This document shows positions 1,603 through 28,636 of a DNA stretch of 47,826 nucleotides, in pieces. Numbering within the stretch: position 1 is the first letter of the stretch; each line of letters starts with the position of its first letter. The stretch is from Candidatus Kaiserbacteria bacterium RIFCSPHIGHO2_12_FULL_53_13 (GTDB taxonomy: Bacteria > Patescibacteriota > Minisyncoccia > Phycocordibacterales > UBA2100): NCBI GenBank assembly GCA_001781555.1, contig MFLP01000034.1:1788-49613 (forward strand), written 5' to 3'. The position numbers and the translations under genes were made by a program. The notes under the pieces were generated by a model, which saw only the letters and a program-made list of their open reading frames with translations, had not been told where the DNA came from and made no database searches.

Positions 1603-4600
1603 CTACAAAGCTTTTACGCGTTCAATGACAAAACTCGCTTCCCCGTTCCTATCCGAGAATTTTCCTTTTGCCGCCAAGCACGTTCCGACTGAAAGCAAAG
1701 CGCCAGCTTCTTTGAGCACTCGCGGGAAAGCAACTATCTCTACGCCGTCGGAATAATCGGAAAGACGCGCAAAAAGCATCGGCTCTCCGTTTTTCGTCAG
1801 TATCGTCCGCGCGGTATCAAGAAATCCCGCTATGACCGTTTCCACTCCGCGGGGGAATTTTTCTTTTGCTTCTTTAATGGTGGTTTTCTGACGAGAAAGC
1901 TTTTCCCTGTATTTATCGAGCGGGTGTCCGGAAACATAAAGTCCAAGAAGCTCTTTCTCCCACAGAAGCCGCTGGTCTTGGGACGCAGGAGTTCCTTCAG
2001 GAACGTGCAATGTCGCCTTTGCGTGTGTGTCGGCTCCGAAGAGCGACCCCTGGTTTGTCGGGACGTTCACATGCTCGCGATGAAAGTGGAGAAGCACATC
2101 AATGTTGGAAAGCAGGCTCCCGCGTCCGCCAGCTGGCGGAGCGAGCTCGTCCAAGGCTCCGCACTTGATGAGAGATTCAAGGGATTTTTTATTCAGGTTC
2201 TTATCGGGTATACGCCGCAGAAAATCGGCGATATCAGAGAACATCCCGCTTGATTCTCGCGCAGCAATAATAGAATCGGCCACGCCAGTCCCGAAATTCT
2301 TTATAGAGTAGAGCCCGAAGCGTATCGTTGAATCATCAACGACGGTGAAATTACCCTGGCTCTCTTGGACAGATGGCGGGAGTATCTTAAGCCCCATGCG
2401 CGCACATTCGGCGACGACCTCTGCTATCTTTTCCACCTCTCCGGCATCTGCGGTGAGAATTGCGGCCATGTAATCTACGGGGAAATTCGCCTTCATGTAA
2501 GCCGTTTTGTATGAAAGATTTCCGTATGACGCCGCGTGCGCCTTTCCGAAACCGTATGCCGCGAAAGTCTCTATCTGTTCCCAAAGTTTCTGAACAAGCA
2601 CTTCCTTCATTCCGTGCTTGATGCACCCGCGTGTAAACCTTTCTTTTTGCGCGCGCATCTCAATAGGGATTTTCTTTCCCATCGCCTTTCGTAATTTATC
2701 AGCTTCGGTCCAGCTGTAACCGGCAAGCTTTATAGCGAGCATGAGTACATCGTCTTGATACACGATGATGCCGTAGGAATGTTCCAATATCGGCTCCATT
2801 CTGGGGTCCAGATATTTCACGAGGCGCGGGTTGTGCTTGCGTTCGATATAAGCGGGGATAAAGGCCATGGGCCCTGGACGATAAAGCGCCACCATTGCAT
2901 TGATGTCATGAATTCTCTCGGGCTTTAGGTCTACCAGATAGTTGGTGATGCCGCCGCCTGCGAGCTGGAACACGCCAAGGGTCTCTCCGCGGCTCAACAT
3001 CCCGAATGTCTTGGAGTCGTCGAGAGGGAGATGATCCAGGTCTATGTGGACGCCTAGCCGCGCTTCCACCCGGGCGACGGAATCTGCGAGGACGGAGAGG
3101 TTCGTGAGCCCCAAAAAGTCGAATTTCAAGAGGCCCGCTTCTTCCACTGCATACATGTCGTACTGGGTGATCTTCTTTCCGCCTTTCGGGTCGAATTGTA
3201 TGGGGACATATTCGGTGACGGGGGAAGGAGAAATGACAACGCCCGCCGCGTGTACCCCCACATGTCGCGCGTTGCCCTCTATCTTGCGCGCGAGGTCCAG
3301 ACACTCGCGCGCATCAGGGTCTCTCTTGTATAAGTCCGCAAGTTCCGGAACGCTCTCAAGCGAGCTGTCGATGTAGACGGGGAATCCCTGCTTGCCGAAC
3401 GGAATAAGTTTCGCGATAGTGTCGCCGACGCCGTACGGGTGCCCGAGAGCGCGCGCGACGTCGCGCACTGCCGCGCGCGCCATCATCGTACCGAAGGTCC
3501 CTATCTGCGCCACGTGGTCGTCGCCATATTTTTGCCGGACATAATCTATTAGCTGGTCTCGGCGATTGTCGGCGAGATCCATGTCGATATCAGGCGGCGA
3601 CGGGCGTTCCGGGTTCAGAAAGCGCTCGAAAGGAAGCTGGTATTCTATCGGGTTGACCGTCGTTATGCCGGAGAGATAGGAAACCAGAGAACCGGCGGCG
3701 GAACCACGCGTGTTCGTGAGGATGCCTTCTTTGCGCGCGTGCCGCAATAAGTCTGCGACGACGAGAAAGTAAGGCGAATATCCTTTGTCCGCGATAACAG
3801 ACAGCTCGTAATCTACGCGCTCCTTATTTTCTTTCGTTTCTTCTATGCCGCGTTCTTTAAATCCGGCATATGCGAGATCGTGAAGAACACTGTCGTGCGT
3901 TGCTCCATCCGGGACTGGGAATTCAGGGAAAACCCAGGTGCCGAGGTCCAGTTCCAGGTTGCATGCATCGGCGATTTTCGAAGCATTTTCGAGCGCTTCG
4001 GGTAGATCAACGAAACTATTTTCCGCATCCGCACGCGAGATGAATGAGAAATCGCCAGAACTTTCCGCGGAATCGCGGTTCAGGACGCCGCTTGTGCGTA
4101 TCTTGTCGACGAGTTCTCGCGCGAGTGCGTCCTCTTTTTTCATATAATACACCTCATGCGCGGCGACCAACGGGATGCGCAATTCGCGCGCGAGCTTTTC
4201 TATCTTATTCGCCAATGCTTCATGACCGGGAATTTCCGGGTGATGTGTTATCTCCGCATAGCATCCGCCGGCTGGCGGAGCGCCAAAAGTGCGCGCGTAC
4301 CACTCCGCTGATTCGCGCGCGCGTTCTCCAGCATTGTCGCGCAACGCGCGCGCATGCTCGCCGTCCAAAGAGGGAAGTATCGCGATTAGGCCTTCACGAT
4401 GCAGTTCCAAAAGCTCGCGGTCAACGCGCGGACGATGAAAGAATCCCTCAAGATGACTTTTTGAGACGAGCTGTATCAGATTGTGATAACCCGACTTATT
4501 CGAGGCGAGGAGTACAAGCCGGGAAGGACTATCGTCCACGCGATGCTCCTTATCATGCCTTGTGCGGGGCGCAACAAAGAAATCAACGCCTATTATCGGT

Positions 4601-15941: not shown

Positions 15942-16898
15942 ATGACGGAGAAATTCGATAAAAAATATCGGCGATTTGCGGAAGCGGCCAAAGGTACGAA
16001 CTCCGTGACGTCGAAAAGTGACAGGAAATTGATAAGGGAAAATCCTGACTTCTTGTTATTTGGCAGGAGCGACAGATTGAAAAAAGAGGTACCTCGTGGC
16101 GCGTTCGCGTCTTTTTTCAGAGTCTTGCAGGGAGATCATAATATTGATCCTCGCACTGTATTGAAAATCGGCAATTTCTTATATGGCCATCGTCCAGATA
16201 AGAGAAACGAAGAAAATGAAAAGAATCCGCCTCTCTCGCCGGAAGATCGGCCTCTCATGGATCTTGCTTGCACGCTCGTCGAAGACGCGTTTTATAGCGG
16301 TGACTTACTGGACTTGCCGAAAGAACATGGCGCCGCACTCGCGTTCACGGTGAACGTCATCGCGAAGATCCTTGAGCAGCGGTCAAGTGGTGCGGAGCTT
16401 GCGGGTTTCGACCGGCAAAAATTCAGACACTTCTTGAATGCTGTGATCGAGTTTGAGAAACGATATTATGATCGCGTGATCCAAAGAGAAGAGGATCGAA
16501 ACGAAGAAGGTCGCCTGCATCGCCTTTTCCTTGCCGGAGCACAACGCGCAGGGACTTTCTCCACAGAAAAGTACACTTTAGCATATTGGATAAAGAATGT
16601 TCTCATGGTTGATAATCGTCTCGGCTCAATTCCTGAGAGAGAAAGACGCGCAGAGGAAGAAGACAATTTACGCGCCAAGTATTTTAAGGAGCCGGGTGTC
16701 CTAAGCGGCGAGTGGCCGGAAGACCGTACACTCATGTACTCGATGCTTACTCATCGGATAACGGATTCCATGCCACAGGGTGAATCCAATTATGCCGGTT
16801 TCCATTTCCTTGAGGAAGACATTCCCCTTGCCGTGTGGACGCTTCGGTATCTGCGCTCAAAAAAGAGACAGAAACGCCCCGAGATTCACTCAATGTAA
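15942..16898 (+). CDS. Hypothetical protein
   Basis: 318-aa ORF in a gap not covered by other genes. I recognise no motif. Confidence 0.55.
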   Translation: MTEKFDKKYRRFAEAAKGTNSVTSKSDRKLIRENPDFLLFGRSDRLKKEVPRGAFASFFRVLQGDHNIDPRTVLKIGNFLYGHRPDKRNEENEKNPPLSPEDRPLMDLACTLVEDAFYSGDLLDLPKEHGAALAFTVNVIAKILEQRSSGAELAGFDRQKFRHFLNAVIEFEKRYYDRVIQREEDRNEEGRLHRLFLAGAQRAGTFSTEKYTLAYWIKNVLMVDNRLGSIPERERRAEEEDNLRAKYFKEPGVLSGEWPEDRTLMYSMLTHRITDSMPQGESNYAGFHFLEEDIPLAVWTLRYLRSKKRQKRPEIHSM

Positions 16899-16938
16899 GC
16901 CATTTTTCGGCGGACGTTCGGCGTGGTACAGTGGCTTA

Positions 16939-18762
16939 ATGTGCGGTATTTTCGCATACACGGGTAAAAAAGACGCTGCGAAGGTCCTCTTGAACGGCCT
17001 TGTTTCGCTCGAATACCGGGGCTATGACTCCGCCGGAATATATTTGCCCGAATCGGGGAGTATTAAATCCGCCGGCGCGGTGGACAGGTTAAAGAAGAAA
17101 ATCCCAAAGACAGGATTCACCGGGAAAAGCGGCGTCGCGCATTTGCGCTGGGCGACGCACGGCGAACCGACGGAATTGAACGCGCACCCACACGCCGACT
17201 GCGACGGCGATATCTGGGTCGTGCACAATGGCATCATCGAGAATTTCAGGGAGCTCAAGGAGAAACTGATAAAAGCGGGACACACGTTCAAATCCGACAC
17301 CGACACGGAAGTTCTTGCGCACCTCATTGAAGAGCACATGAAGAACGAGAAGACATTTGAGGAAGCGACACTCGCGGCCCTCAATGAAATACGCGGCACC
17401 TACGGTGCCGCAATACAGTACCGGCAAGACCCCGAGCGCATCATCGCGGCGCGCATGGGCTCGCCGGTCGTCCTCGGCGTCGGCAAAGGCGAGCGCTTCA
17501 TCGCGTCCGATCCGTCGCCCATCGTCCCGCACACGAAGCAGGTTGTGTTCCTCGAAGATGGCGAAGTCGCCGTCATCACGCCCGACAGCCACACCATTTA
17601 CAAGCTCGACTCGACGCAGGTGAAGCGCCCCACGCTCGAAATAGATTGGAGCGCCGAGGAGGCGCAGAAGGGCGGCTACGAGCACTTCATGCTCAAAGAA
17701 ATCATGGAAGGCCCGGAGGTCATCCGCAACACGCTTCGCGGCCGGCTCATCCCGGAAAAAGGCCTCGCGAAATTGGGCGGGCTTGAGAGCGTGGCCGATG
17801 AGCTCAAGAAAATCGATCGCATTATCATCGTCGCGTGCGGGACGGCCTCATACGCAGCGCTCGTGGGCGAGCACATGCTCGAAGAATATGCAGAAATCCC
17901 CGTCGAAGTCGAACTCGGCTCGGAATTCCGATATCGGAAGCCCGTCGTCAACGAGCGCACTGCGGTTCTTGGCATTTCGCAATCGGGAGAGACACTCGAC
18001 ACGCTGGAGGCCATCCGCGAGGGAAAGCGGCGCGGAGCGCTCACGCTCGGCATCGTGAATACCGTCGGCTCCACCATCGCGCGCGAGACCGACGCCGGCG
18101 TGTACAACCACGCGGGCCCGGAGGTAAGCGTCGCCTCGACAAAAGCATTCCTCTCACAGCTCACGGCGTTGGCGCTTCTCACGATTTTCCTCGGACGCAC
18201 GCGGAAGATGTCTGCCAAAGCGGGAAAAGAAATCGCGCGCGAGCTTCTGGCGCTTCCGGAAAAAATCGAGCGGATTCTTGAGAATCGTGCGGCGATCGAG
18301 CGGCTCGCGAAAAAATACGTGAAAGCCCAGGACTTCCTGTTCATCGGACGCAAATACAACTATCCGATAGCGTTCGAGGGGGCGATTAAGCTCAAGGAAG
18401 TCTCATACATTCATGCCGAAGGGTGCGGGGCAGGCGAGATGAAGCATGGGCCTATCGCGATGATAGATGAGAATTTTCCCACGATGGCCATCGCAACAAA
18501 GGACAGCGTGTACGAAAAAATGCTCTCCAATATTCAGGAGATAAAAGCGCGGAAAGGGAAGGTCATCGCAGTCGCGACGGAAGGCGACACGGAGATAGGG
18601 AAGATCGCCGACGATATTCTCTACGTCCCGAAGACCATCGAGGTGCTGAGCCCCATCTTGAACGTCATTCCGCTTCAGCTCTTCGCCTACTACTTCGCAA
18701 AAGAAAAAGGCCTCAACGTCGACCGCCCCAGAAACCTCGCAAAATCCGTCACTGTCGAGTAA
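16939..18762 (+). CDS. glmS: Glutamine--fructose-6-phosphate aminotransferase
   Basis: It has the MCGIFAY N-terminal nucleophile, two SIS domains and a C-terminal ...RNLAKSVTVE. Start 16939 is chosen rather than the ORF-track 16780. TGGTACAGT (16924-16932) lies 6 nt upstream. Confidence 0.95.
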   Translation: MCGIFAYTGKKDAAKVLLNGLVSLEYRGYDSAGIYLPESGSIKSAGAVDRLKKKIPKTGFTGKSGVAHLRWATHGEPTELNAHPHADCDGDIWVVHNGIIENFRELKEKLIKAGHTFKSDTDTEVLAHLIEEHMKNEKTFEEATLAALNEIRGTYGAAIQYRQDPERIIAARMGSPVVLGVGKGERFIASDPSPIVPHTKQVVFLEDGEVAVITPDSHTIYKLDSTQVKRPTLEIDWSAEEAQKGGYEHFMLKEIMEGPEVIRNTLRGRLIPEKGLAKLGGLESVADELKKIDRIIIVACGTASYAALVGEHMLEEYAEIPVEVELGSEFRYRKPVVNERTAVLGISQSGETLDTLEAIREGKRRGALTLGIVNTVGSTIARETDAGVYNHAGPEVSVASTKAFLSQLTALALLTIFLGRTRKMSAKAGKEIARELLALPEKIERILENRAAIERLAKKYVKAQDFLFIGRKYNYPIAFEGAIKLKEVSYIHAEGCGAGEMKHGPIAMIDENFPTMAIATKDSVYEKMLSNIQEIKARKGKVIAVATEGDTEIGKIADDILYVPKTIEVLSPILNVIPLQLFAYYFAKEKGLNVDRPRNLAKSVTVE

Positions 18763-18820
18763 TCCTTTGCGCGCCGCCCGCCAGTTTCCCCAAAATGCTG
18801 AATTGCGGAATGTCGTTATG

Positions 18821-18842
18821 CTAGTGTTTTGCAAAAGACTAG
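18821..18842. promoter_or_regulatory. Near-palindromic 22-mer, candidate ArsR operator (copy 1)
   Basis: CTAGTGTTTTGCAAAAGACTAG is self-complementary at 20/22 positions. It lies 8 nt upstream of the TAGAAT -10 (18850-18855) of the ArsR gene. Confidence 0.55.
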
Positions 18843-18861
18843 CATAAGGTAGAATTGCAAC

Positions 18862-19143
18862 ATGACGAATGTTAGTAGTGAATACAGAAGGCTAGAGCGG
18901 ATTGTAAAAGGATTTGCGAATCATCGGCGGCTTCAGATCTTGGATCTTTTGAAGCGGGAGCCGGAATTGTCGGTAGAAGACATTTCCGAACGGCTGGGGA
19001 TTGGATACGAGAATGCATCTGACCATGTACGCAAACTCGCGATAGCCGGGCTTGTCCTCAAGCGCAACGAGGGAAGCTCGGTGCGGCACAAGCTTACGCC
19101 CCGCGCGGAGTCTATACTAGTGTTTTGCAAAAGACTGCAATAA
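18862..19143 (+). CDS. ArsR/SmtB-family winged-helix transcriptional regulator
   Basis: 93 aa. FANHRRLQILDLLKREPELSVEDISERLGIGYENASDHVRKLAIAGLV is typical of ArsR. TAGAAT lies 6 nt before the ATG. Confidence 0.85.
   Translation: MTNVSSEYRRLERIVKGFANHRRLQILDLLKREPELSVEDISERLGIGYENASDHVRKLAIAGLVLKRNEGSSVRHKLTPRAESILVFCKRLQ
19117..19136. repeat. Second copy of the ArsR-associated palindromic 20-mer
   Basis: CTAGTGTTTTGCAAAAGACT lies inside the last codons of the ArsR gene and is identical to 18821-18840. Confidence 0.6.
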
Positions 19144-19270
19144 GAAAAGAGTGGGAAGAAGGGGAAATTGAAGTGGGAAGGGGGAGATGAAGTGGGGTGA
19201 AGAAAAGAGTGTAGAGAATGGGAAGGGGGCGAGGCGGGGAAAACGACATGAGGAAGTAGGGGCGGAGCAA
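19141..19270 (+). repeat. Polypurine, G-run-rich tract
   Basis: There is no C between 19141 and 19229. GAAGTGGG(G)AAG-type units recur, with GGG to GGGGG runs throughout. It lies between the ArsR and MazG-like genes. Confidence 0.8.
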
Positions 19271-19308
19271 GTTTCCCAAAAATAAGGAATTGTGGGATAT
19301 TTGGGCTA

Positions 19309-19656
19309 ATGGCAACGTGGAGTGATATTCAGAAGAAGGCGATTGAATTTCGCGATGTGCGGGATTGGAAGCAGTTCAATAATCCGAAAGACTTGGCCTT
19401 GTCGCTTGTTCTCGAAGCGGCGGAGGTCTTGGAACATTTTCAGTGGAGAAACGGAAAGGAGATGGAAGAATATGTCCGCACGCACAAAGGAGAAATTGCG
19501 GAGGAACTCGCGGATGTTTTGTATTGGCTCGCAACAATGAGCCATGATTTGAAAATCGATTTGTTTAGGGCATTTGAAGCGAAAATGAAAAAGAACGAAA
19601 AGAAATACCCGATCAAGAAGTCCAAGGGCAAGCACACCAAGTACGATAGGTTATAG
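19309..19656 (+). CDS. MazG-like nucleotide pyrophosphohydrolase
   Basis: 115 aa. RDWKQFNNPKDLALSLVLEAAEVLEHFQW and EIAEELADVLYWL match the all-alpha NTP-PPase (MazG/YpjD-like) EExxE/D pattern. Confidence 0.75.
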   Translation: MATWSDIQKKAIEFRDVRDWKQFNNPKDLALSLVLEAAEVLEHFQWRNGKEMEEYVRTHKGEIAEELADVLYWLATMSHDLKIDLFRAFEAKMKKNEKKYPIKKSKGKHTKYDRL

Positions 19657-19717
19657 GCAGAAAAGGAGCATCTGAGCGGATTTCCCCAAAGTTCGTATTT
19701 GTGGGATGATCCTATTG

Positions 19718-20551
19718 ATGGCTATTCCAACATACGATAATTTGTTTAACCCAGTCATTGAAGCCTTAAAGAAACTTGGAGGTTCAGGATCAGTTTCTGA
19801 GATTGAAGAGAAAGTCGCCGTATTACTCAAATTGACCGATGAAGAAGTAAACGAAATACACCGAGGTAACAGGTCGAAGTTGAGCTATCGACTTGCTTGG
19901 TCGAGAAATTATCTGAAACGTTACGGAATCTTGGAAAATTCCTCGCGTGGAGTTTGGGCTCTAACGCCATTGGGAACGAAGACAGGAAAAGTCGATAAAG
20001 ACGAGGTCAACAAGGCCGTCAAACTGCTTGACCAAGCGCTCGTCAAGGGGAAGAAAGATGGTAAAAAAGTTATAGACGATGAAGAGCCAGGTTTATGGCA
20101 AGAAGAAATGTTGGAGCAACTTCTGAAACTTTCTCCAGCCGCGTTCGAGCGACTATGTCAACGTATACTACGCGAGTCAGGCTTTGTTCAAGTAGAAGTC
20201 ACTGGCCGATCCGGTGATGGAGGTATTGATGGTCGGGGCATTATAAAGATAGCAGGTCTTCTTAGCTTCTACATTATTTTTCAGTGCAAACGGTATACGG
20301 GCAGTGTATCTGCTCAGCAGATCAGAGATTTCAGAGGTGCGATGGTCGGGCGAGCTGATAAAGGACTTGTTATAACTACTGGGACTTTTACGAGAGACGC
20401 AAGGCAAGAAGCTACAAGGGATGGTGCGCCGCACATCGATCTTATCGAGGGGGAGGAGTTAGTTGAGAAGATGAAGGAATTGCAACTTGGTTTGAAAATT
20501 AAGATGGAGGAATCGGTTGAGGTTGATAAGGATTGGTTTAAAGCTTTCTAA
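19718..20551 (+). CDS. mrr: Mrr-family type IV (modification-dependent) restriction endonuclease
   Basis: The Mrr_N-type start is MAIPTYDNLFNPVIEALKKLGG. The catalytic region reads GDGGIDGRG...IIFQCKRY...GLVITTGTFT. ATG 19718 is preferred over the ORF-track 19706. Confidence 0.85.
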   Translation: MAIPTYDNLFNPVIEALKKLGGSGSVSEIEEKVAVLLKLTDEEVNEIHRGNRSKLSYRLAWSRNYLKRYGILENSSRGVWALTPLGTKTGKVDKDEVNKAVKLLDQALVKGKKDGKKVIDDEEPGLWQEEMLEQLLKLSPAAFERLCQRILRESGFVQVEVTGRSGDGGIDGRGIIKIAGLLSFYIIFQCKRYTGSVSAQQIRDFRGAMVGRADKGLVITTGTFTRDARQEATRDGAPHIDLIEGEELVEKMKELQLGLKIKMEESVEVDKDWFKAF

Positions 20552-20567
20552 ACCAACCCAACTAATT

Positions 20568-21518
20568 ATGAAGAAGAGAGAAAAGAAGAAGAAACAGAAT
20601 TCATGGATAGCAAAAGCCGCAGACTCTATTAAAAGGGCTGGACTTGCGTACAAAACTGTTACCACCAAGAGTTCACAGCATCTTTTGATAAATGCCGACT
20701 GTGAGGACGGGATGCGTGCGCTGCCGGAAGGCAGTGTGGATCTTATTATCACAGATCCACCCTACAACCAGAATCTCGATTATGGTCCGAAATTCAACGA
20801 CAAAAAATCCCGCGGTGAGTTTTATTCCTGGTTTAGAAGACGACTTTCATATATTCCCAGTCTATTAAGTTCACGCGGAAGTTTTTATCTTATTAGCTAT
20901 CCAGAAATTAATGCCAGAATCTTACCGTTTCTTGAGGACGAGCTGGGCCTAAACTATCGTGCATGGATCACATGGCATTATCCAACAAATATCGGTCATT
21001 CGAAAAAGAACTTCACACGCAGCCAAAGATCCATCTTATTTTTTACTAAGGAAAAAGATAATTATATTTTTAACCGGGATATTTTACTCCAGCCATATAA
21101 AAATCCAACCGCACCTGTTATAAGAGAACGAATCAAACAAGGGGCTAAAGGTCGGGTTGCATATGACACACTTCGTTTATCTGATTTATATGAACTCAAT
21201 AAATTGTCATACGATGTACAGATATTAGATCTATTAAAAAACAATTCTCCTGAGAGACTAAGAAATCTGGACGGGCACTTTACCCCTTTCAACGATGATA
21301 AGAAGTTGAAGAGAAATGATCATCCCTGTCAGTTGCCCTTGAGCTTGCTCACACTTTTTATACAAGTTAGTAGCAACACAAATTCTCTGATCCTGGATCC
21401 ATTCGCCGGCACTTTTACCACCTCCGCTGCGGCTGAAAAATTAAACCGCTCTTCTGTGGGAATAGAGCTTAACAAGAAATTCATAGATTTCGGTTCAAAG
21501 AGATTATCTCTCATATGA
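20568..21518 (+). CDS. Beta-class N6-adenine/N4-cytosine DNA methyltransferase
   Basis: Motif IV DLIITDPPYN precedes motif I ILDPFAGTFTTS, which is the beta-class permutation. Start 20568 is preferred over the ORF-track 20517, which overlaps mrr. Confidence 0.85.
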   Translation: MKKREKKKKQNSWIAKAADSIKRAGLAYKTVTTKSSQHLLINADCEDGMRALPEGSVDLIITDPPYNQNLDYGPKFNDKKSRGEFYSWFRRRLSYIPSLLSSRGSFYLISYPEINARILPFLEDELGLNYRAWITWHYPTNIGHSKKNFTRSQRSILFFTKEKDNYIFNRDILLQPYKNPTAPVIRERIKQGAKGRVAYDTLRLSDLYELNKLSYDVQILDLLKNNSPERLRNLDGHFTPFNDDKKLKRNDHPCQLPLSLLTLFIQVSSNTNSLILDPFAGTFTTSAAAEKLNRSSVGIELNKKFIDFGSKRLSLI

Positions 21519-23260
21519 AATATGGACTTGCACAAGCAATAAACATCTTCAATCTAGGGGGAATATTTGCTTGTGATATTGAAGAAACAAAACTTCTAAT
21601 CTCGAAAAGATCCGAGACAGTAAGTGCAGGGAAAATAACGAAGCAAGGAGAGGAGATTGAACTTGACGGCTTTGCGATGAAGGGGGATGTGTTATGGCTC
21701 ATAGAATATACGGACTCGAGGAGCTTAGACACAAAAGATTTTGACAACTTTATTCAAAAGATTACTCTCTTGGGAGACGATGAAAACAAGATGCTTATAG
21801 AAGCCATTAATAAAATCTGGTCAAAATATAAAGTAAAAGAAACGAAACCGAACATCACAGTTAAGACGCAATTAATCGGTCTCTACATTGCGCCGATGAA
21901 AGGTGAGGCTGATGAGGCCACACTCCTCCAAAGAATACCGAGAGACAAGAGAGACAAGACAATATTTTTTTGGGGTCGCGATACTTTTGAGTATTTTTAC
22001 TCCATATGTGAGAGCACCAGACGAAATGCACAGTATGAAATTTACGGTTATTTCAATCTGGAACCTAAGGCCGTCTTCGAGAAGAAGGAAGTCGAAGACC
22101 AAGAGGGCTATGTGTCGAAACCCTATGTAGATATTGAGAAAGGTATTTTCGGATGTCGAATGATAATTTTTAAGATTAGCCCCACATCACTTCTCCGGAG
22201 ATGCTATGTGTTGCGCAACGAGGGCTGGAAAAGCGACAGTTTCCAGCGAATGATAATTCAGGAGAAGTTGAAAAAACTGCGCTCGTACATTGTCGCAAGG
22301 GATGATTCTTCATTTGCGAATAGCATCATTCTCAGTTTGGATCCGAATATTTCGTCAAACGTTTTGAAAGAGGATACAAAGTCAATACTGCTTCCGAATC
22401 GTTTTGCAAGCTTATGTATCATTGATGGTCAACACAGACTTCTCGCGTTTACGCAAGATTTTTATGGAGAGAGCGATCCTTCAGAAAAGGAAAATGATGG
22501 GAAAATTAAGAGACTTGCCGAGAATGAAGATTTAATTGCCACGCTGTTGGTTTTTAATGGAAAACCGCAAGAAATATTGCGTAAACAGACTCAACTTTTT
22601 AGAGATATTAATGCGACCCAAACAAAAGTAAAAAGCGACTTCCTCTATAATCTTGAAGAGATTATAGAGCCTAAGAACCCATCGTCAGTTGGAAACAAGA
22701 TTATCAAATCTCTCAACAGGAGAGAGAACGGTGTATTTCATGAGAAGTTTTCTGTTAAATGGTATCAAGGTGGGAGAATAAAAAGATCTAGTGTCATCCA
22801 ATGGGGATTGGTCGACTTGGTCAAAAAAGACGGACTTCTTTATAAGTGTGCTCCGCGCTCTACGATAGAGAAATATTCAAAGGGTGACGTCGAAGATTAT
22901 GTAGTCTTTTGCGCGAATTCGCTGGAAGACTTCTTTTACGCCATCAGACAAACATTTAAGAAGAAGTATCCTAAGAAAAAGAGCGTGTGGGATTTTTCTT
23001 CAAAAAGTAAACTAATGCTGCTATCGACATCAGCAATCGTGGGATTCCTTAGGCTTTACAGGCATTTCTTGCATTCGAAGATTTTAAAATCCAATTACGA
23101 GGAATACCTTTCCGGTATTGAAGTCAAATTCAACAAAGTTTCTTACAAGTATAGTTCCAGCCAATGGGCAAAGTTAGAGGAGGCAATGTTTGATGACATT
23201 CGCGAAAAATACGGATCTTTTGGCGATGAGTCACTAATAAAAAGATCAAAGAAAATCTAA
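21515..23260 (+). CDS. DGQHR-domain (DndB-like, ParB/Srx-fold) protein with an unassigned ~200-aa N-terminal domain
   Basis: 581 aa. The DGQHR-domain pattern is present: SFQRMI..., IIDGQHRLLAF and LFRDINATQTKV. The ATG overlaps the methyltransferase stop (ATGA at 21515-21518). Confidence 0.75.
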   Translation: MKYGLAQAINIFNLGGIFACDIEETKLLISKRSETVSAGKITKQGEEIELDGFAMKGDVLWLIEYTDSRSLDTKDFDNFIQKITLLGDDENKMLIEAINKIWSKYKVKETKPNITVKTQLIGLYIAPMKGEADEATLLQRIPRDKRDKTIFFWGRDTFEYFYSICESTRRNAQYEIYGYFNLEPKAVFEKKEVEDQEGYVSKPYVDIEKGIFGCRMIIFKISPTSLLRRCYVLRNEGWKSDSFQRMIIQEKLKKLRSYIVARDDSSFANSIILSLDPNISSNVLKEDTKSILLPNRFASLCIIDGQHRLLAFTQDFYGESDPSEKENDGKIKRLAENEDLIATLLVFNGKPQEILRKQTQLFRDINATQTKVKSDFLYNLEEIIEPKNPSSVGNKIIKSLNRRENGVFHEKFSVKWYQGGRIKRSSVIQWGLVDLVKKDGLLYKCAPRSTIEKYSKGDVEDYVVFCANSLEDFFYAIRQTFKKKYPKKKSVWDFSSKSKLMLLSTSAIVGFLRLYRHFLHSKILKSNYEEYLSGIEVKFNKVSYKYSSSQWAKLEEAMFDDIREKYGSFGDESLIKRSKKI

Positions 23261-23384
23261 GTATTCCCTGCAGAGGCGTCTTGCATCAAATCGACGCCGG
23301 TGGACATTGGGCGATTCCAACCTCGTTTGTTTGTTCAGCTAGGTTCATTACTTGAGCCGTTCGCTTTCCCAGCTTAAGCGAGCT

Positions 23385-23481
23385 CGGGCATAGCGCTTCT
23401 GCCGTGTCTAGCAGCGCGACGGCGCGAGAGGCAGCGCTGTGCGAGCACGCACAGACAGCGACGGCAGAAGTGCTATGCCCG
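23385..23481 (-). repeat. Intergenic palindromic repeat, family A, copy 3 (inverted relative to copy 2)
   Basis: The outer stem CGGGCATAGCGCTTCTGCCG ... CGGCAGAAGTGCTATGCCCG pairs 19/20 plus one G-T. The core is nearly identical to the reverse complement of 14011-14107. Homology extends about 20 nt further (CTCRCTTRAGCTKGG). Confidence 0.85.
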
Positions 23482-23743
23482 ACGAGTATCCCTATTGCCA
23501 CCCCCCACCATTTTGTGCTATCCTGGTAATGTGAAATATAGAGGCGTAAACATACAGAATCGCCGTAGGACGCCTTATTTGAGGGTGTTTTAGAGCGTTT
23601 GCATTTATCCAGATCAAACTTTCCGAAACGTCCTCAAAAATGAGGCCGTTTTTGATTAATAGGGTAAAATTACACAGTAAAATAATATGAAAGCACAATA
23701 TCCGTACCACAAGGTAGCTTCATACGAAGGAGATAAAGACAGC

Positions 23744-27384: not shown

Positions 27385-28437
27385 CTAGATTTTTATTATT
27401 TTTTCCCACGAACGTCTGGCTACTCCGAAATGCCCGTAGGTGGCGGTTTCTCGGAAAATGGGGCGGCGCAAATCAAGGCGTTCTATTATTGCCTGGGGGC
27501 GGAAGTCGAAATTCTTCGTGACGATGTTCGTCAGATTTTTTCCTTTGTCGTCGAACGCTTCTATCATCACGGGCTCTGCTCGCCCGATGGCGTAAGCAAC
27601 CGACACTAGGGCTTTCTTCGCGTAGCCGTTCGCGACCAGGTTCTTCGCGACGAATCGGCACATATACGCCGCCGAACGGTCGACTTTCATCGGCTCTTTT
27701 CCTGAGAAACACCCGCCGCCATGCGGCATGAGGCCTCCGTAGGTATCGACTTGTATCTTTCGGCCTGTTAATCCCGCATCTGCTTCAAAACCGCCTTGCA
27801 CGAACCGTCCTGTCGGATTGACTAGTATTTCTATGTTCTTCGTCGAGCCGAGTACGGGAGTGAAGAGATGTTTTATGAGCTGTTTCCGTATCTCTTCTTG
27901 AGAGACTTTCTTGTCATGCTGCGTGGAGCAGAGCGCCGTCAGGACTTTACCCTTTGAGATAGTCACCTGCGTTTTGCCGTCGGGCTTCAGCCAGGGAAGC
28001 GTCTTGTCGCGGCGCAATTTCTCAAGGCGTCTTGCGAGCGCGTGCGCCAAGACCACTCCAAGAGGAAGCATCTCTTTCGTTTCGTTCGTCGCATAACCAT
28101 ACATGATGCCCTGATCCCCCGCGCCGCCCGTGTCAACGCCCATCGCAATGTCAGGTGATTGCTGTGCGATACGCACAAGCACCTCAAGGTTGTCCTTGTA
28201 GCCGATTTCCCGGTAGACGCGCCTCGCGATCTTTTCAAAGTCGACTTTCGCTTTCGTCCGGACTTCTCCGCCTATCATAAGAGTTCCGTGACTGCCGAAC
28301 GTCTCCACGCCGGCTCTGCTGAAGGGGTCTTGTTCGAGCATTGCATCAAGAATGGCGTCTGATATCTGGTCGCAGACCTTATCGGGATGCCCGCATGTGA
28401 CGCTCTCCACCGTGTACCTCTCAAGTAAATGGAACAT
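27385..28437 (-). CDS. metK: S-adenosylmethionine synthetase
   Basis: Motifs GHPDKVCDQISD, GAGDQG and DTYGG are present. On the minus strand TATAAG (28443-28448) lies 5 nt before the ATG. The stop codon is 3 nt from the convergent argF stop. Confidence 0.93.
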   Translation of the reverse strand: MFHLLERYTVESVTCGHPDKVCDQISDAILDAMLEQDPFSRAGVETFGSHGTLMIGGEVRTKAKVDFEKIARRVYREIGYKDNLEVLVRIAQQSPDIAMGVDTGGAGDQGIMYGYATNETKEMLPLGVVLAHALARRLEKLRRDKTLPWLKPDGKTQVTISKGKVLTALCSTQHDKKVSQEEIRKQLIKHLFTPVLGSTKNIEILVNPTGRFVQGGFEADAGLTGRKIQVDTYGGLMPHGGGCFSGKEPMKVDRSAAYMCRFVAKNLVANGYAKKALVSVAYAIGRAEPVMIEAFDDKGKNLTNIVTKNFDFRPQAIIERLDLRRPIFRETATYGHFGVARRSWEKIIKI

Positions 28438-28636
28438 AATATCTTATAGAACCAAATATCTCCCCGACGGGAGATTATTGATAAAAGTATCTTCCCATAC
28501 GGGCTGGATGTGGCACCTTCTCTTTCGAGGGTTGTCGGCGGGTCATCAGGCCAGTTCCTTCACCGCGCTCTTGATACGATATTCAGTTGTGCACACATGA
28601 TAGCAGTCATCGTGCCGCTGTGCAATACTGCCGCAC

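Follow-up and report, generated by a model that had tools for sequence, protein, structure and literature searches.

Within a 47,826-nucleotide stretch of contig MFLP01000034.1 from Candidatus Kaiserbacteria bacterium RIFCSPHIGHO2_12_FULL_53_13 (here called the window, with positions counted from its first letter), two plus-strand genes form a conserved pair: a methyltransferase open reading frame (ORF) at 20568-21518 and an ORF at 21515-23260 for a three-domain, 581-amino-acid (aa) protein containing a DGQHR domain. With a probability of about 0.5, we read the pair as a restriction-modification (R-M) module of undescribed architecture, in which the candidate restriction subunit couples a variant PD-(D/E)xK nuclease to a ParB-like nucleoside triphosphate (NTP) switch. 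The estimate is no higher because the canonical active-site lysine is missing and because relatives of the same architecture are found in dnd loci.

The pairing of methyltransferase and DGQHR protein is conserved and specific, and hosts that are not related to each other inherit the two genes together. Among 5.8 billion proteins searched, 25 full-length relatives of the 581-aa protein were found at 41-66% identity. Nine distinct close-family loci were compared, namely the window and loci L001, L002, L004, L007, L090, L092, L102 and L103, the sources of which include an unclassified bacterial metagenome-assembled genome (MAG), a Bathyarchaeia MAG and several metagenome contigs. A PF01555 methyltransferase is encoded directly upstream on the same strand in 9/9 of these, and the remaining neighbours vary. 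The methyltransferases of the close-family relatives from the protein search are 283-307 aa long. Pattern scans of genomes and metagenomes added one and two close members, respectively, and were swamped by an unrelated clade of ~390-aa DGQHR proteins, mostly from Acidobacteriota; the two family loci added by the metagenome scan also carry the pair.

The association was recovered in the reverse direction as well. Three independently chosen methyltransferase homologues (P0107, P0116 and P0191; 55-64% identity), encoded in a MAG and in genomes of Uhrbacteria and Pacearchaeota, all have a DGQHR protein encoded directly after them (3/3). These partners are 513-595 aa long and 24-25% identical to the 581-aa protein, which is the asymmetry usual between modification (M) and restriction (R) subunits. 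Two further relatives were found without reference to gene context and were placed by tblastn. On plasmid p2 of Rhizobium ruizarguesonis, a site-specific DNA methyltransferase gene is followed by one for a 594-aa DGQHR protein (WP_130774219/WP_130774220; stop at 4513, start at 4515), and in the temperate Akkermansia phage Chantilly a 616-aa relative is convergent with a PF01555 methyltransferase beside an integrase (WAK79058/WAK79059). Downstream of P0031, which belongs to another clade, lies a PF01555-like methyltransferase of a different kind, 610 aa long. A preliminary description of this DNA, made from its letters alone, had set co-occurrence of the two genes beforehand as a test that could refute its proposal of a functional pair; co-occurrence is conserved across bacteria, archaea, a plasmid and a phage.

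As a control, hidden Markov models of both families were scanned over all fetched loci, and methyltransferases within 500 bp were counted. None of ~155 short (~390-aa) DGQHR proteins, mostly from Acidobacteriota, had such a methyltransferase within this distance. Nor was any of five long DGQHR proteins of other families paired with one (in at least one of the five, L012, a HEPN domain lies at the C-terminus), and 18 PF01555 methyltransferases from viral contigs were all without a DGQHR neighbour. A scan of IMG/VR with the methyltransferase profile returned no close homologue, the best match being 38% identical.

The junction between the genes is also characteristic. As read directly from the sequence, the methyltransferase stop codon (TGA, 21516-21518) and the start codon of the 581-aa gene (ATG, 21515-21517) share the tetranucleotide ATGA at 21515-21518, so that the tight operon proposed in the preliminary description is confirmed. 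The fixed stoichiometry that it also deduced from the overlap is presumptive. A tight junction, with an overlap of 4-14 nt or a gap of 0-1 nt, recurs in 9/10 other same-strand loci; in L090 the gap is 73 nt.

Residues 1 to ~190 of the 581-aa protein (21515-22084, plus strand) are modelled as a restriction-endonuclease-fold domain of the PD-(D/E)xK class, RecB/Can2-like. The N-terminal 200 residues modelled alone gave a predicted local distance difference test (pLDDT) score of 91.8, and the order of secondary-structure elements fits the alpha-beta-beta-beta-alpha-beta core. Foldseek comparison with the PDB returned mostly PD-(D/E)xK nucleases. The top match was the nuclease domain of Can2 (E=1.2e-3, probability 1.0), and others were Shedu, Nt.BspD6I, R.BspD6I, the cap-snatching endonucleases of arenaviruses and bunyaviruses, the R2 endonuclease domain and Mus81. 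In the model, D51 of the E49-x-D51 motif (21659-21667) starts the second core strand and E64-x-T66 (21704-21712) ends the third, which are the canonical positions of D and (D/E)xK. An hhalign comparison with a 769-aa relative from Chthonomonadales (probability 99.3%) placed D51, E64 and T66 on the D, E and K of LDAVAY...VVVECK, a true D...ExK site. The stretch ELDGFAMKGDVLWLIEYT, located at 21659-21712, had been offered as PD-(D/E)xK-like only as a loose guess, which is now backed by both Foldseek and profile alignment.

A profile of this domain, searched against 1.84 billion representatives, collected 77 proteins, most of them 550-630 aa long with the domain at the N-terminus. Over ~100 relatives the family signature reads [E/D]xD-x12-ExT...[D/E]xxxY. 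Glutamate or aspartate occupies its first acidic position in 95%, D51 is present in 100/100, E64 in 99/101 and Y160 in 105/105; the position four residues before Y160 is mostly acidic. The last motif (D156-xxx-Y160, 21980-21994, plus strand) is located in the helix after the fourth strand, and for this reason we infer that [D/E]xxxY is the counterpart of the QxxxY of RecB/Cas4-type nucleases. The conserved acidic residues argue for metal binding and, probably, for catalysis.

The entire protein is identical to OGG69311.1 (UniRef100_A0A1F6E6Q2) of Candidatus Kaiserbacteria, annotated only as hypothetical or "DGQHR domain-containing", and its start is backed by homologues that open with the same MKY... 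sequence. An AlphaFold2 model built from the family alignment has a mean pLDDT of 89.2 and a predicted template modelling score of 0.86. The DGQHR domain, of the DndB-type ParB/Srx fold, spans residues ~205-420 (22127-22774, plus strand). The protein passes the cut-offs of both TIGR03187 DGQHR (66.3 bits versus 58.85, E=3.6e-18) and PF14072 DndB (37.3 bits versus 29.1, E=2.2e-9). This bears out the DGQHR pattern that the preliminary description had seen in the C-terminal part; the peptides it quoted, SFQRMI and LFRDINATQTKV among them, are all present. A QR motif (Q244-R245, 22244-22249), DGQHR itself (D304-R308, 22424-22438) and FRDIN (F362..N366, 22598-22612) are invariant in 26/26 family sequences. 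Structurally, this central part matches ParB-N and Noc, and in a viral library it matches DndB, DUF262, GmrS and ParB models. We take the domain to be a putative NTP-binding switch.

Residues ~421-581 (22775-23257, plus strand) form an alpha-helical C-terminal domain according to the secondary structure and pLDDT of the AlphaFold2 model, and within it the motifs GFLRLYRHF and SSQW are invariant in the family alignment. Pfam searches of residues 1-212 and of residues 396-581 gave no match, a family-profile search of the PDB gave nothing meaningful (best E-values 1.9 and 2.5), and PHROGs held no family for the 581-aa protein. A C-terminal HEPN domain, reported for DndB, was considered and rejected: it had no match in the window's family, and HEPN_Swt1 was found only in the distant relative L012.

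The upstream gene encodes a complete beta-class DNA amino-methyltransferase. It matches PF01555 with E=4.7e-42 (144.9 bits versus a cut-off of 26.7), and its motif IV (DPPY, 20754-20765) precedes motif I (DPFAGTF, ~21396-21416, near the C-terminus), which is the beta-class order. Of the PADLOC models, that of the Type II MTase matches best (E=1e-45). The closest solved relatives are M.MboIIA (3.5e-24), M.RsrI, DpnA and CcrM, which are mostly adenine-specific; N4-cytosine enzymes are also among the solved matches. The enzyme is probably N6-adenine specific. Partner-linked homologues are 52-63% identical to it, the region between motifs IV and I included. The alignment of homologues favours the ATG at 20568 as the start, giving 316 aa, and shows a lysine-rich insertion after it that is peculiar to the window's enzyme. 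The public gene call (P0099, 333 aa) begins at an alternative TTG at 20517 and overlaps the end of the neighbouring Mrr gene (20517-20567).

Under the R-M reading, the methyltransferase would mark host DNA, probably with N6-methyladenine, and the 581-aa protein would attack unmarked DNA through its N-terminal metal-dependent nuclease site ([E/D]xD...ExT...[D/E]xxxY). The ParB-like domain would act as an NTP-driven switch that translates the modification state of the DNA into binding, release or activation of the nuclease, a role modelled on that of the DUF262 domain in DndI, SspE and GmrSD/BrxU. The nearest mechanistic precedent is DndI, which joins a ParB-like DUF262 NTPase (DGQQR) to an HNH nuclease and cuts unmodified DNA, phosphorothioate-stimulated ATP hydrolysis releasing it from self DNA (PMC11662687); SspE and GmrSD/BrxU are related enzymes that sense modification. 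The R protein may also rely on the methyltransferase to recognise its sequence, in the way that Res relies on Mod in Type III systems; the tight junction and the far greater conservation of the methyltransferase than of its partner are the reasons for considering this.

Several observations weigh against this reading, as do the roles of ParB-fold proteins and of DndB that are given with the alternatives below. The structural matches are modest (E ~1e-3, template modelling score ~0.37), though consistent among themselves. The lysine position of the canonical site is threonine in 84/101 relatives (83%) and lysine in 2%, the rest being mostly valine, asparagine or alanine, so that nuclease activity is not assured. 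Note that in BglII and BamHI the catalytic lysine is replaceable, by glutamine and glutamate, respectively. A few members have lost the glutamate or the whole motif (L097, P0028 and L094). Finally, the same-architecture relatives P0029 and P0034 adjoin dndA/E/D or dndC/D/E, the usual position of dndB.

The alternative that survives best, although we consider it unlikely, is that the DGQHR protein is a methylation helper, the ParB-like NTP switch of which loads on DNA and recruits, activates or spreads the methyltransferase, with the nuclease fold serving only to bind DNA. The pair would then correspond, as two separate proteins, to the ParB-methyltransferase fusions that phages and plasmids encode, with parallels in DpdB and its partner DpdA and in ParB and phage thymine dioxygenases. 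Phages commonly carry PF01555 methyltransferases fused to ParB-fold domains (PMC12704722), and a ParB homologue is needed for the action of a phage DNA dioxygenase on double-stranded DNA (PMC13229309). The replacement of lysine by threonine across the family is as a helper would have it, translational coupling fits the formation of a complex, and one relative is encoded on a temperate phage. However, beta-class methyltransferases of this size with complete motifs act alone (M.MboIIA and M.RsrI are the closest solved enzymes), and a helper leaves unexplained the three near-universal acidic residues and the tyrosine at nuclease active-site positions. Moreover, the loci are defence islands in cellular genomes rather than phage modification clusters, and the IMG/VR scan described above disclosed no close methyltransferase homologue.

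It is rather improbable that the DGQHR protein is instead a DndB-like, NTP-modulated DNA-binding repressor that limits the methyltransferase, which would make the module an orphan methylase with its controller. Characterised DndB proteins have been described as regulators modulated by ATP and not as nucleases, DndB being reported to act negatively on the dnd operon (PMC4507180); the 581-aa protein passes the DndB Pfam cut-off, and three-domain relatives of the same kind stand at the dndB position, divergent from dndCDE, in loci L185 and L182. Nevertheless, the equivalog model of DndB is missed by far (17 bits versus 328). In the close-family and reverse-test loci the gene stands downstream of the methyltransferase in every case and overlaps it in most, whereas regulators, dndB included, are usually upstream or divergent. 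A 581-aa, three-domain protein with conserved catalytic-type residues would be excessive for a repressor, and it is R-M systems rather than regulated orphan methylases that typically spread horizontally as a two-gene unit in defence islands.

It is very improbable that the DGQHR protein acts by itself in suicide or abortive infection, whether as a nuclease or as a ParB-like enzyme that depletes NTPs, and is kept under control by the methyltransferase in the manner of an addiction or toxin-antitoxin pair, without sequence-specific restriction: an effector role, as nucleases or in nucleotide degradation, has been proposed for ParB-superfamily proteins of conflict systems (PMC10853773, PMC3632139), and the L012 relative with a true ExK site and a C-terminal HEPN domain occurs without a methyltransferase, but the methyltransferase-free relatives belong to other clades with extra effector domains, and every close-family member examined, together with the ExT-type relatives outside dnd loci, is linked to a DNA methyltransferase, a linkage that points to a DNA mark as the signal of self or non-self.

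A more specific version of the R-M reading can be stated, and it should be regarded as speculative and rather doubtful. In it, the 581-aa protein would be a restriction endonuclease with a ParB-type clamp in place of the helicase-like motor of Type I and III enzymes or the GTPase of McrBC. Loading would take place at unmethylated sites, perhaps by way of the methyltransferase; the protein would then close in the NTP-bound state, slide or oligomerise on the DNA, and so activate the lysine-less ExT site. In dnd loci, proteins of this build would provide the restriction arm that is missing from Dnd systems without DndFGH. The dnd-linked relatives could be read as such a nuclease arm. The idea of a nuclease arm for Dnd systems without DndFGH has been raised in general terms (PMC10853773).

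Compared with known systems, the pair combines familiar elements in a new arrangement. Like the 581-aa protein, DndI, SspE and GmrSD/BrxU carry a ParB/Srx-fold NTPase with a DGQ(Q/H)R P-motif and a nuclease domain in one polypeptide, and in the case of DndI host DNA modification by the products of neighbouring genes protects self DNA, as proposed for the window's pair. In DndI, SspE and GmrSD, however, the nuclease is a C-terminal HNH domain (DUF1524) and the ParB-like domain is DUF262; the window's protein has a modelled N-terminal PD-(D/E)xK fold and a ParB-like domain of the DndB type (PF14072/TIGR03187). The partner of DndI is the phosphorothioation machinery, that of the window's protein a single methyltransferase. 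SspE and GmrSD are activated by modification, whereas the 581-aa protein would be blocked by it. ParB-like domains of COG1479 are often fused to nucleases, PD-(D/E)xK included (PMC3632139).

With DndB and DpdB the protein shares the domain family, the QR, DGQHR and FxxxN motifs and the link to a DNA-modification gene. It differs in its extra 190-residue nuclease-fold domain and in having its gene downstream of the partner and coupled to it, not divergent. In common with Type II and III R-M systems, a PF01555 beta-class M gene lies directly upstream of, and overlaps, a larger gene for a PD-(D/E)xK-fold protein, and the family is mobile, found in defence islands, has M more conserved than R and includes an HTH_3 controller-like gene in one locus. 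Type III Res resembles the R candidate in combining an NTP-dependent module with a nuclease. The differences are that the window's protein has a ParB-like domain instead of the superfamily 2 helicase/ATPase of Type III, that its catalytic lysine is replaced by threonine, and that the methyltransferase is small (316 aa) and Type II-like. The ParB-methyltransferase fusions of phages and plasmids join a ParB-fold NTP-binding domain to a PF01555 N6/N4 methyltransferase (PMC12704722), a combination also seen in the window's pair; they are single polypeptides with a canonical ParB N-terminal domain and no nuclease fold, while the window encodes two proteins, the ParB-like part being DndB-type.

Several named systems were tried and rejected. 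DndB proper (the TIGR03233 equivalog) has a cut-off of 328 bits, of which the 581-aa protein scored 17, and no dnd genes are present among the window's large ORFs; it also falls far below the cut-off of the DGQHR_dnd_1 equivalog. For DpdB (NF041060) the score was 33.7 bits against a cut-off of 300, and no dpd genes are nearby. GmrSD, SspE and DndI (DUF262 plus DUF1524) were set aside since Pfam and PADLOC gave no DUF262 or HNH match and the protein has DGQHR as its motif, with its nuclease-like domain at the N-terminus. Membership of an Ssp system was rejected as well, no ssp gene being among the large ORFs scanned. For want of a helicase domain in the 581-aa protein, a Type III Res subunit was set aside. 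In PADLOC-DB v2 no system model fits both proteins: the methyltransferase is a generic MTase_II, and the 581-aa protein gives weak matches to DpdB (6e-8) and DndB (3e-3). Full-text literature searches (DGQHR, DndB-like with methyltransferase, and related terms) disclosed no account of the two genes together; in Mycobacterium abscessus, association of a DGQHR protein and a Dam-type methylase has been noted incidentally. The statement in the preliminary description that the pair is not a named system therefore stands, with no PADLOC model and no account in the literature searched. Its reservation that the pair might belong to a Dnd-related family was answered in part: the pair itself is not Dnd, but the protein superfamily is Dnd-related, and distant relatives of the same architecture lie in dnd loci. 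What is new, at roughly even odds, is an R-M-like module with an undescribed R architecture.

The neighbourhoods of related loci are those of defence islands, with genes for Type I R-M, AlwI R-M, a Type III-like helicase plus methylase, Mrr, HEPN and HNH proteins. In one related locus a 65-aa HTH_3 gene, R-M controller-like, stands directly before the methyltransferase. The window's pair is preceded by a gene for an Mrr-type Type IV restriction enzyme (19706-20551, plus strand; Mrr_N and Mrr_cat matches, PADLOC mREase_IV). The preliminary description had made this flanking Mrr part of the picture; the gene is where it was placed, but a role as third component was rejected, since an Mrr_cat gene is nearby in only 3/9 close-family loci, and at varying positions.

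Among the distant relatives, locus L097 (1972-7636; Pacearchaeota GCA_026002795.1) looks like a three-gene operon, in which a gene for a 1010-aa ResIII/SNF2 helicase overlaps the methyltransferase start and the methyltransferase overlaps the DGQHR gene. No other related locus has a separate upstream ResIII helicase, and in the DGQHR protein of L097 the conserved glutamate has been lost, the motif reading LIGIN for LIExT. In the dnd loci L182 (3001-4803) and L185 (4001-5770), DGQHR proteins of ~590-600 aa have the N-terminal nuclease-fold domain and the ExT motif, and these "long DndB" forms may carry a nuclease function. Locus L012 (5473-7779; Chthonomonadales) encodes the 769-aa protein used for profile alignment, which combines true PD-ExK and DGQHR domains with a Swt1-like HEPN domain at its C-terminus and is without an adjacent methyltransferase; it looks like a distinct stand-alone effector architecture. 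Locus L100 (4695-10855; Agrobacterium sp. S7/73 plasmid NZ_CP072139.1) contains two consecutive DGQHR-domain genes followed by genes for a radical S-adenosylmethionine (SAM) protein and an ATP-binding protein, adjoins a PIN-like plus ATP-binding pair, and is a different DGQHR-containing system.

The pair lies in an islet of low G+C content (38-47% over 19300-23260, versus 50-60% in the flanks), which is made up of the MazG-like, Mrr, methyltransferase and DGQHR genes and is located directly downstream of glmS (16780-23260 of the window). The MazG-like nucleotide pyrophosphohydrolase gene is at 19309-19656 (plus strand; PF12643, E=5.5e-15), and a small ArsR-type helix-turn-helix (HTH) gene is found upstream of the pair on the same strand at 18862-19143. 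In a related MAG (L001, 1183-9740) the methyltransferase-DGQHR pair is also a few genes downstream of glmS, with an ATP-cone/Mrr_cat gene between, and the stretch that follows glmS may be a hotspot for insertions. Neither the window's region nor that of L001 showed a transposase. The ten other large ORFs of the window that were scanned are housekeeping genes (DnaE, SMC, RNase J, GroEL, Mur ligase, Ddl and others); none is a dnd, ssp or dpd gene, as the preliminary description had said.

Scans for promoters and terminators performed no better than on shuffled sequence. A 27-nt motif, TTTCCCMAAA-N8-TTGYGGRAT, occurs in exactly three copies in the window (18785-18811, 19272-19298 and 19681-19707), none being expected by chance. 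Each copy is just upstream of the ArsR-HTH, MazG-like or Mrr gene, and none precedes the methyltransferase; the motif could serve these genes as a common promoter or operator, or it could mark the junction of a cassette. The ArsR-type HTH gene is flanked by a nearly perfect palindrome of 32 nt, TTATGCTAGTGTTTTGCAAAAGACTAGCATAA (18816-18847), and by a copy with 88% identity (19113-19144), which may be operator sites. On the other side of the pair, the 426-bp GC-rich spacer between the DGQHR gene and argG contains a 35-nt inverted repeat (23384-23482; 80% complementary, 29-nt loop) that could be a terminator or an islet boundary. Farther away, an ordinary SAM riboswitch (RF00162, 54 bits; 28484-28580, minus strand) lies upstream of metK (27385-28437, minus strand).

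If the pair is a working R-M module, it would represent a restriction subunit of new architecture, in which a variant PD-(D/E)xK nuclease and a DndB-type ParB NTPase are joined, and it would give the widespread and poorly understood DGQHR domain an enzymatic context outside phosphorothioation. It would also link ParB-fold NTP switches, methylation-based R-M and the modification sensing of DndI and SspE. The module is compact, with two genes in 2.7 kb, and is conserved across domains of life, occurring in bacteria of the candidate phyla radiation and in DPANN archaea, the defence repertoires of which are little explored. Because relatives are present on a plasmid of cultured Rhizobium and in an Akkermansia phage, the module is directly testable, and its conserved ExT variant would bear on how far a PD-(D/E)xK site can do without lysine.

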